Source of the DNA: Escherichia coli
Lineage (GTDB): Bacteria; Pseudomonadota; Gammaproteobacteria; Enterobacterales; Enterobacteriaceae
Reading direction: 5' to 3' (one strand)
NCBI RefSeq assembly: GCF_003334765.1
Contig: NZ_QOWT01000080.1
DNA: 1,241 bases
The position numbers and the translations under genes were made by a program. This document shows, one piece after another, positions 1 through 1,241 of the stretch (positions are counted from its first letter, which is position 1; every line of letters starts with the position of its first letter). Below the pieces are notes generated by a model that was not told the DNA's origin, did not search any database, and saw only the letters and a program-made list of their open reading frames with translations.

Positions 1-15
1 AAATGTTCGTCTCAT
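1..15 (-). CDS. insI: IS30 transposase, first 5 codons only (MRRTF); the CDS continues off the left edge of the window
   Basis: ATG at 13-15 on the minus strand followed by AGA CGA ACA TTT; matches the remembered IS30 transposase start MRRTFTAEEKA. The symbol insI is the E. coli K-12 name for the IS30 transposase. Confidence 0.6.
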
Positions 16-51
16 TCAAAAAACCTCCGCAACCCCATGTTTTCACATAAC

Positions 52-77
52 TGTTGCGTTGACCAATTGAATCTACA
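52..77 (-). repeat. IS30 left terminal inverted repeat (about 26 bp), outer end at position 77
   Basis: Terminal TGTAGATTCAATTGGTCAACGCAACAG on the minus strand; the sequence changes abruptly at 77/78 into IS3-family orfA coding sequence. Exact IR length is recalled, not measured. Confidence 0.6.
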
Positions 78-340
78 GTTGCTTTTTTTAATATATCTCG
101 CTCAAGGCGAGCTTCATTTAACGCCTTACGCAGTTGCAGAATTTCAGATTCCAGTTCAGCCACCGTGCGGGAACCAGGAGTACCGAGCCCTTTTCTGGCG
201 GCGGTAACCCATTGTCCTAAAGTGCCTTCAGGAAGAGATAATCGGGAAGCGCCTTCACTGATCGAAAGTTGATTTTCAAGAACCGTTCTGACAGCTTCGG
301 CTTTGAACTCTTTAGAGTAACGTTGGGTTTTTCTGCTCAT
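78..340 (-). CDS. IS3-family (IS600-like) OrfA, N-terminal 88 codons, truncated by IS30. The reading frame stays open through the IS30 inverted repeat to the window start, giving a chimeric tail VDSIGQRNSYVKTWGCGGFLNETNI...
   Basis: ATG at 338-340 (minus strand); translation MSRKTQRYSKEFKAEAVRTVLENQLSISEGASRLSLPEGTLGQWVTAARKGLGTPGSRTVAELESEILQLRKALNEARLERDILKKAT, with a helix-turn-helix-like N-terminus and a heptad-Leu coiled coil typical of IS3-family OrfA. Strong AAGGAG Shine-Dalgarno 6 nt upstream of the ATG. Confidence 0.8.
83..89 (-). other. A7 slippery run (TTA AAA AAA GCA), the likely programmed -1 frameshift site that would join orfA to orfB
   Basis: Seven consecutive A on the minus strand, in the ILKKA segment at the orfA C-terminus. 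IS3-family elements use A6G/A7 slippery heptamers here to make the OrfAB transposase. The IS30 junction is only 6 bp downstream. Confidence 0.5.
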
Positions 341-346
341 TATTAG

Positions 347-352
347 CTCCTT
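347..352 (-). promoter_or_regulatory. Ribosome-binding site (AAGGAG) of the IS3-family orfA
   Basis: Minus strand reads AAGGAG-CTAATA-ATG, i.e. a consensus Shine-Dalgarno with 6-nt spacing to the orfA start codon. Confidence 0.7.
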
Positions 353-360
353 CTGATGCC

Positions 361-389
361 ATTCTATTTCAGGAAGGAGTGTCCGTTAA
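361..389 (-). promoter_or_regulatory. Candidate sigma70 promoter for orfA inside the IS left end: -35 TTAACG (384-389), 17-bp spacer, -10 TAGAAT (361-366)
   Basis: Hexamers read on the minus strand. The -10 matches TATAAT at 5 of 6 and the -35 matches TTGACA at 4 of 6. The position between the IS terminus and the orfA RBS fits the known location of IS3-family orfA promoters. Found by eye only. Confidence 0.35.
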
Positions 390-404
390 ACTCAGGCTAC
401 CTCA
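380..404 (-). repeat. Left terminal inverted repeat of the IS3-family element (approximate extent), outer end at 404
   Basis: Minus-strand terminal sequence TGAGGTAGCCTGAGTTTAACGGACA. The inner boundary cannot be fixed without the other end of the element. Confidence 0.5.
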
Positions 405-420
405 GCGTATCTCGGCATCA

Positions 421-1241
421 ATGCGCAAACAGCCTGATGCCCTTCGCTACGACCGCCAAACTATTTTTGGCCTTGTCCGTGAGCGTCCGATCGACATTCA
501 CAAAGATCCCGTAGCACTGAACAAATATATCTGCGAATACCTGACGACAAAGGGCGTGTTTGAGAATGAAGAAACAGACCTGGGCACTGTTGATGTTCTC
601 CAGTCATCAGAAACACAAACTGATGCAGTGGAAACTGAGGTATCTGATATCCCAAAAAATGAAACCGCGCCGGAAGCTGAACCATCTGTAGAGCGTGAGG
701 GGCCGTTCTATTTCCTCTTCGCAGATAAGGACGGAGAAAAATACGGTCGCGCAAACAAACTCTCTGGTCTGGATAAGGCACTGGCTGCTGGCGCCACTGA
801 AATCACAAAAGAAGAATATTTTGCCCGAAAAAATGGCACATACACGGGCTTACCGCAAAATGTAGATACCGCTGAAGATTCAGAACAACCAGAGCCGATA
901 AAAGTTACCGCTGACGAAGTAAACAAAATTATGCAGGCAGCCAATATCAGCCAGCCTGACGCCGATAAGTTGCTTGCTGCATCACGTGGTGAATTTGTTG
1001 AAGGGATTAGTGACCCGAATGATCCGAAATGGGTTAAGGGGCTCCAGACCCGCGATTCTGTGAACCAGAACCAGCATGAATCGGAACGGAACTACCAAAA
1101 AGCGGAACAAAACAGTCCAAATGCGTTACAAAACGAGCCAGAAACGAAACAGCCTGAACCAGTAGCGCAACAGGAAGTGGAAAAAGTCTGCACCGCCTGC
1201 GGTCAGACCGGCGGCGGCAACTGCCCTGATTGTGGCGCGGT
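421..1241 (+). CDS. recE: Partial CDS with no stop in the window: acidic protein with a CxxC-x7-CxxC zinc ribbon, probably the central region of a prophage RecE-like (exonuclease VIII) protein. Likely 5'-truncated by the IS insertion, so possibly a pseudogene or gene remnant.
   Basis: Frame 1 is open from 316 to 1241; the first in-frame ATG is at 421. Translation MRKQPDALRYDRQTIFGLVRERPIDIHKDPVALNKYICEYLTTKGVFENEE...EVEKVCTACGQTGGGNCPDCGA. The frame checks out at every 60-bp line start and the composition is coding-like. There is no Shine-Dalgarno upstream of ATG 421, which sits 17 bp from the IS terminus. The recE assignment rests on remembered similarity to the region upstream of the RecE nuclease domain and is not verified. 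Confidence 0.55.
   Translation, partial: MRKQPDALRYDRQTIFGLVRERPIDIHKDPVALNKYICEYLTTKGVFENEETDLGTVDVLQSSETQTDAVETEVSDIPKNETAPEAEPSVEREGPFYFLFADKDGEKYGRANKLSGLDKALAAGATEITKEEYFARKNGTYTGLPQNVDTAEDSEQPEPIKVTADEVNKIMQAANISQPDADKLLAASRGEFVEGISDPNDPKWVKGLQTRDSVNQNQHESERNYQKAEQNSPNALQNEPETKQPEPVAQQEVEKVCTACGQTGGGNCPDCGA
1189..1233 (+). other. CxxC-x7-CxxC zinc-ribbon-like motif (C-TA-C-GQTGGGN-C-PD-C) within the plus-strand CDS
   Basis: Four Cys codons at 1189-1191, 1198-1200, 1222-1224 and 1231-1233 in the CDS frame, separated by a Gly-rich loop. Confidence 0.6.

Follow-up and report, generated by a model that had tools for sequence, protein, structure and literature searches.

The gene studied here is known from Escherichia coli K-12 as ydfE of the Qin prophage (L005 6079-7549). 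There it occupies the same place on the chromosome, between ydfD and rspB, and an insertion sequence (IS) has likewise turned it into a pseudogene; its 5′ part is kept to about codon 256, and an IS2 fragment (IS2E) replaces the rest of the gene together with xis and the start of intQ. In phages the gene is intact. It encodes 823 aa and carries the name 'exodeoxyribonuclease encoded by CP-933P', and over the 273 residues encoded in our stretch of DNA the amino-acid identity is 99-100% for PhiR42_1 and Tritos and 80% for mEp460; ydfD, xis and int are the neighbours there too. A search of the literature on ydfE, Qin and the exonuclease returned nothing useful.

The nesting of one IS in another has also been described. 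IS30 is characterized by a 2-bp target duplication and prefers 'nearly palindromic' hot spots, and the nesting of IS911 and IS30A is already known (PMC9333248). In the K-12 prophage CP4-6, IS30A lies in IS911A (insN/insI1), 263 nt into an IS3-family orfA and after an A-run, and the K-12 element KpLE2 has IS30D and a 327-bp IS600 end inside IS911B.

Here we analyzed a stretch of 1,241 nucleotides of E. coli DNA, called the window, which is almost certainly the junction of an IS-insertion pseudogene in a decayed Qin-type lambdoid prophage beside rspB. The frame found open at 405 is the orphaned 3′ part of the exonuclease gene, and the ATG at 421-423 on the plus strand is its internal Met295 and not a start codon. 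The window holds residues 289-568 of the protein that is intact in the phages, and the locus is without residues 1-163. Unlike ydfE, this locus retains the 3′ part of the gene, xis and int, and it was interrupted by IS600 with a clean 3-bp duplication; the truncation of K-12 ydfE arose independently.

The window is 100% identical over its whole length to a stretch of E. coli ML35 and to about 30 other complete genomes. Its positions 1-77 (minus strand) are the left end of IS30, whose terminal inverted repeat ends at 77 and whose transposase ATG (15-13, minus strand) reads leftward and out of the window; the counterpart of this segment is annotated as IS30 family transposase. The left 327 bp of IS600 occupy 78-404 (minus strand), and the counterpart of this segment is annotated as IS3-like element IS600 family transposase. 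Its orfA runs from 340 to 78 on the minus strand with the translation MSRKTQRYSKEFKAEAV; IS30 interrupts it after 263 nt, immediately beyond the A-run in the frameshift window. The interior of the exonuclease gene covers 405-1241 on the plus strand, beginning with the third base of codon 289 and reaching codon 568 of 823, and the fragment extends past the window end to its natural stop. In the ML35 stretch the NCBI pipeline gives, in this order, an IS30 transposase, a transposase fragment 'missing C-terminus' and a '3'-5' exoribonuclease domain-containing protein, missing N-terminus', which are followed by the excisionase, the integrase and then the chromosomal rspB.

The sequence across the IS end reads CTCAGGCTACCTCA up to 404 and GCGTATCTCGGCATCAATGCGC from 405 onward. 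An earlier sequence-only reading had placed an IS3-family terminus at 404, and the left end of IS600 does stop there, as given by a complete copy at the same site in strain AST198. The same reading had described a frame already open across the IS end, which agrees with frame 1, whose last stop is at 313-315 and which has no stop in 316-1241. It had further described the first in-frame ATG as lying at 421, 17 bases after the IS end and without a Shine-Dalgarno sequence, and this was also borne out. Pairing of the 20 bases before an ATG with the 16S anti-Shine-Dalgarno (anti-SD) sequence was calculated in kcal/mol; the 20 bases before ATG 421 (CTCAGCGTATCTCGGCATCA) gave -1.7 kcal/mol against a window background mean of -2.3, and the native start of the gene in the intact allele gave -6.8 kcal/mol.

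The identity of the open frame comes from uninterrupted alleles. In strain ECamp52 the gene is 2472 bp long, encodes 823 aa (WP_000048342.1, 'exonuclease') and is preceded by dicB and ydfD and followed by xis and int, and the match of the window to this allele begins at gene nucleotide 867. Window positions 405-1241 are 100% identical to L002 4001-4837 (837 bases), which lie within the 2472-bp annotated exonuclease gene, so the open frame is not a product of chance. The segment MRKQPDALRY, which begins with ATG 421, represents residues 295-304 of the full-length 823-aa protein. In PhiR42_1 and mEp460 the annotated gene is also 2472 bp long in the same neighbourhood, and the match of the window from its ATG begins at codon 295; no gene start at Met 421 was present among the annotations inspected. 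The expectation that residue 1 of the 421-1241 translation would align to an internal position of full-length homologs was therefore correct, as it falls at Met295 in the E. coli alleles, PhiR42_1 and mEp460. Homologs whose N-terminus is MRKQPDALRY were sought as a refutation, and the opposite was found. The sole Pfam domain of the full-length protein is PF16473 (Rv2179c-like 3'-5' exoribonuclease domain) at residues 642-813 (E = 5e-67), which is outside the window yet inside the fragment kept in ML35, where residues 290-823 are stop-free and 100% identical to the intact allele.

A part of the window resembles another kind of exonuclease gene. At about 958-1239 it is similar to the RecE-type 'exodeoxyribonuclease VIII' genes of Rac-like prophages, with 66-87% amino-acid identity and, at the DNA level, 126 bases at about 90% identity. 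The catalytic domain of RecE is of a different type from that of the PF16473-bearing prophage exonuclease, and the shared stretch would be a mosaic, non-catalytic module common to the two kinds of prophage exonuclease. A CxxC-(8 residues)-CxxC motif (CTACGQTGGGNCPDCG) was also noticed at 1186-1233; it is like a small zinc ribbon, lies in an acidic low-complexity part in the middle of the protein, and gave no Pfam match.

The interrupting element was identified from its complete copies. In strains H3 and AST198 this site is occupied by a complete IS600 (1264 bp) that has no IS30 in it. The AST198 copy is annotated as 'IS3-like element IS600 family transposase, programmed frameshift', and its ends are TGAGGT and ACCTCA; the left end, beginning with TGAGGTG, and TGAGGTAG match at 19 of the first 27 positions. 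The terminal repeat in the window ends with GGCTACCTCA at 404. The element thus has the length of about 1.26 kb, the imperfect inverted repeats of the form 5'-TG...CA-3' and the 3-bp direct target duplication of IS600, and the orfA and the A-run TTAAAAAAAG visible in the window, together with the annotation, agree with a programmed -1 frameshift between two overlapping reading frames.

The empty site reads GACTGGAAGCGTATCTCGGC (core GGAAGCGTATC; L002) with a single GCG, and a single GCG is present at the empty sites of both ECamp52 and strain 300709. In ML35 (L001) the left junction joins GACTGGAAGCG to TGAGGTGTACTGG, that is GGAAGCG to TGAGGTG, and the right junction joins GGCTACCTCA to GCGTATCTCGGC, that is ACCTCA to GCGTATC, so that the GCG at 405-407 of the window is the right-hand copy of the duplication. 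GCG on both sides, against a single GCG in the empty site, indicates a simple insertion of IS600 with a 3-bp target duplication. The far flank, beyond IS30 and the remaining part of IS600, consists of exonuclease codons 164-289, is 100% identical to the gene and ends in GCG; homologues without the insertion run through this point unbroken, and here the IS has one part of the gene on each side. Among 5,426 complete genomes the left junction of IS600 was found in 43, the right junction in 36 and the whole window in 40, and the mismatch of these counts is probably due to further local rearrangements or to the joining of BLAST pieces.

These junctions bear on the main proposal of the sequence-only reading, namely that the IS had inserted inside a gene and not upstream of an intact one, which is confirmed by the two gene halves around IS600. 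The flank of the far IS end was predicted to continue the same gene with a 3-bp duplication matching GCG at 405-407, and exactly this was found. An uninterrupted allele lacking sequence upstream of the GCG and a far junction lacking the GCG repeat were both looked for as refutations, and in both cases the opposite was obtained. The accompanying statement that the insertion removed the 5′ portion of the gene calls for a correction: IS600 did no more than displace the upstream part by about 2.5 kb. The loss of codons 1-163 is not due to IS600, because the separate deletion that took them is also present in strains whose IS600 site is empty.

This deletion lies to the left of IS600. In ML35 exonuclease codons 164-289 alone remain on that side, followed by a DUF977 gene on the other strand, and the junction which fuses the DUF977 gene to exonuclease codon 164 is at L001 3500-3560, about 2.9 kb left of the window. 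The genes lost are dicC, dicA, ydfABC, dicB and ydfD, along with exonuclease codons 1-163, and the missing part of the gene ends 382 bp from IS600. This junction was found in 90 genomes, of which roughly half lack IS600, and strain 300709 has the deletion with the IS600 site empty. As the deletion occurs in strains with an empty IS600 site, it is older than IS600, and the gene was already dead before IS600 arrived.

The third element, IS30, is 1221 bp long in ML35 (L001 4857-6077), with 3 base differences from IS30A of K-12. Intact IS600 reads CGCTGTTGC at this point, and in ML35 CGCTGT is followed by IS30 and then by GTTGC, which is a 2-bp GT duplication; one copy of it, within IS600, is at 78-79 of the window. 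The length of 1221 bp, the single transposase gene and the 2-bp target duplication are those of IS30. The window and the CP4-6 case agree in the distance of 263 nt into an IS3-family orfA, in the position after an A-run, in the orientation and in the 2-bp duplication (AC in the orfA sense). The window junction is 99.75% identical to that of KpLE2 over 405 bp; KpLE2 keeps the 327-bp IS600 end alone; in our locus IS30 has a part of IS600 on either side. The loci of this nesting comparison are L006 2500-2570 and 3735-3805 and L010 2960-4507, and the nestings of CP4-6 and KpLE2 lie at other host loci than the window. The IS30/IS600 junction (77/78; window 60-100) is 100% identical in 1,284 of the 5,426 genomes, on chromosomes as well as plasmids and including KpLE2 of K-12. 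This pattern may reflect a hot spot for IS30 within IS3-family elements or else the spread of an IS600::IS30 composite of 2485 bp. IS30 may have entered this IS600 copy in place or have come by recombination with another IS600::IS30 copy.

Taken as a sequence of events, the history starts from the intact prophage, in which the exonuclease gene of 823 codons is the final large gene of the dicB operon, standing behind ydfD and ahead of xis and int. In the first step a deletion joined the DUF977 gene to exonuclease codon 164 and took away the operon promoter, the immunity region and the start of the gene. IS600 (IS3 family, 1264 bp) then transposed into codon 289/290 with duplication of GCG, and in what is probably the last step IS30 (1221 bp) entered the frameshift window of IS600 with duplication of 2 bp. 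As the IS30 insertion splits the IS600 transposase gene, the IS600 transposase is disabled. The order of deletion, IS600 and IS30 is likely; for the first two it is shown by intermediate strains, and for IS30 it is deduced. Nothing that contradicts this structural account was found.

Three other explanations were weighed against the interrupted prophage gene. That the IS only lies ahead of an intact gene truly starting at ATG 421 is suggested by this ATG being the first after the IS end and by the frame being open to the window end, but most of 405-1241 is contained in 3,602 of 5,426 complete genomes, in which the sequence runs upstream unbroken, and the frame lies inside annotated genes of 823 aa in E. 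coli and in phages with this Met as residue 295. The lack of a Shine-Dalgarno sequence and the NCBI marking of the gene as missing its N-terminus also stand against it, and the explanation was rejected as having practically no probability. It is also extremely unlikely that the IS itself removed the 5′ part through an IS-mediated adjacent deletion. The first 163 codons are indeed absent from the locus; however, such an event predicts no target duplication and an unrelated far flank, and the far flank of IS600 is formed by codons 164-289 of the same gene with the same GCG end. Moreover, 382 bp lie between the IS and the DUF977 junction at which the missing part ends, and this junction is also found in strains without IS600 at this place. 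This explanation was rejected too, the real deletion being separate and older.

The third explanation accepts the insertion and holds that the fragment is still made, as a truncated exonuclease of about 530 aa with the catalytic domain, started at GTG 379 or ATG 421 from transcription reading out of the IS. Up to residue 823 the frame is intact and does not differ from the functional allele, it keeps the catalytic domain (642-813), and an in-frame GTG within the IS600 inverted repeat (379-381, plus strand; a hypothetical start only) follows directly on a purine-rich stretch, AGGAAGGA (window 371-381), with an anti-SD pairing of -6.5 kcal/mol. Against this, the stretch abuts the GTG with essentially no spacer, ATG 421 is without a Shine-Dalgarno sequence, the operon promoter region is deleted, and the perfect identity would equally be expected from a recent event. 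The IS600 left end has a sigma-70-like promoter (361-389, minus strand; TTAACG-17-TAGAAT, 9/12 matches), but it points to orfA and away from the fragment, and both transposase genes, of IS30 and of IS600, run away from it as well. This is the single promoter-like site of the window and of the 3.2 kb of sequence upstream, and no outward promoter toward the fragment was found there. A truncated exonuclease is hence regarded as very unlikely. Judged from the absence of its own start signals, the opposite-facing transposase genes and promoter and the lack of a plus-strand promoter in 3.2 kb, the 3′ fragment of the exonuclease gene is probably not expressed. The perfect identity of residues 290-823 fits a recent event and neither supports nor excludes residual expression.

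A start at GTG 379 would give an IS-encoded leader of 14 codons fused to exonuclease residue 290. That such an IS-gene fusion is expressed, with the left inverted repeat of IS600 giving the ribosome-binding stretch AGGAAGGA and GTG 379 in frame with residues 290-823, is predicted from the sequence and is most unlikely. If it were true, in-frame IS600 insertions could make proteins that are N-terminally truncated yet active.

The case is an ordinary IS-insertion pseudogene which is already annotated as such in RefSeq, and its importance is small beyond correct annotation, namely that 405-1241 is not to be annotated as a gene with its start at ATG 421. The locus is a worked example of the stepwise decay of a prophage by deletion, IS600 and IS30, and since all the intermediate states are still found in sequenced strains, the junctions could serve as lineage markers.
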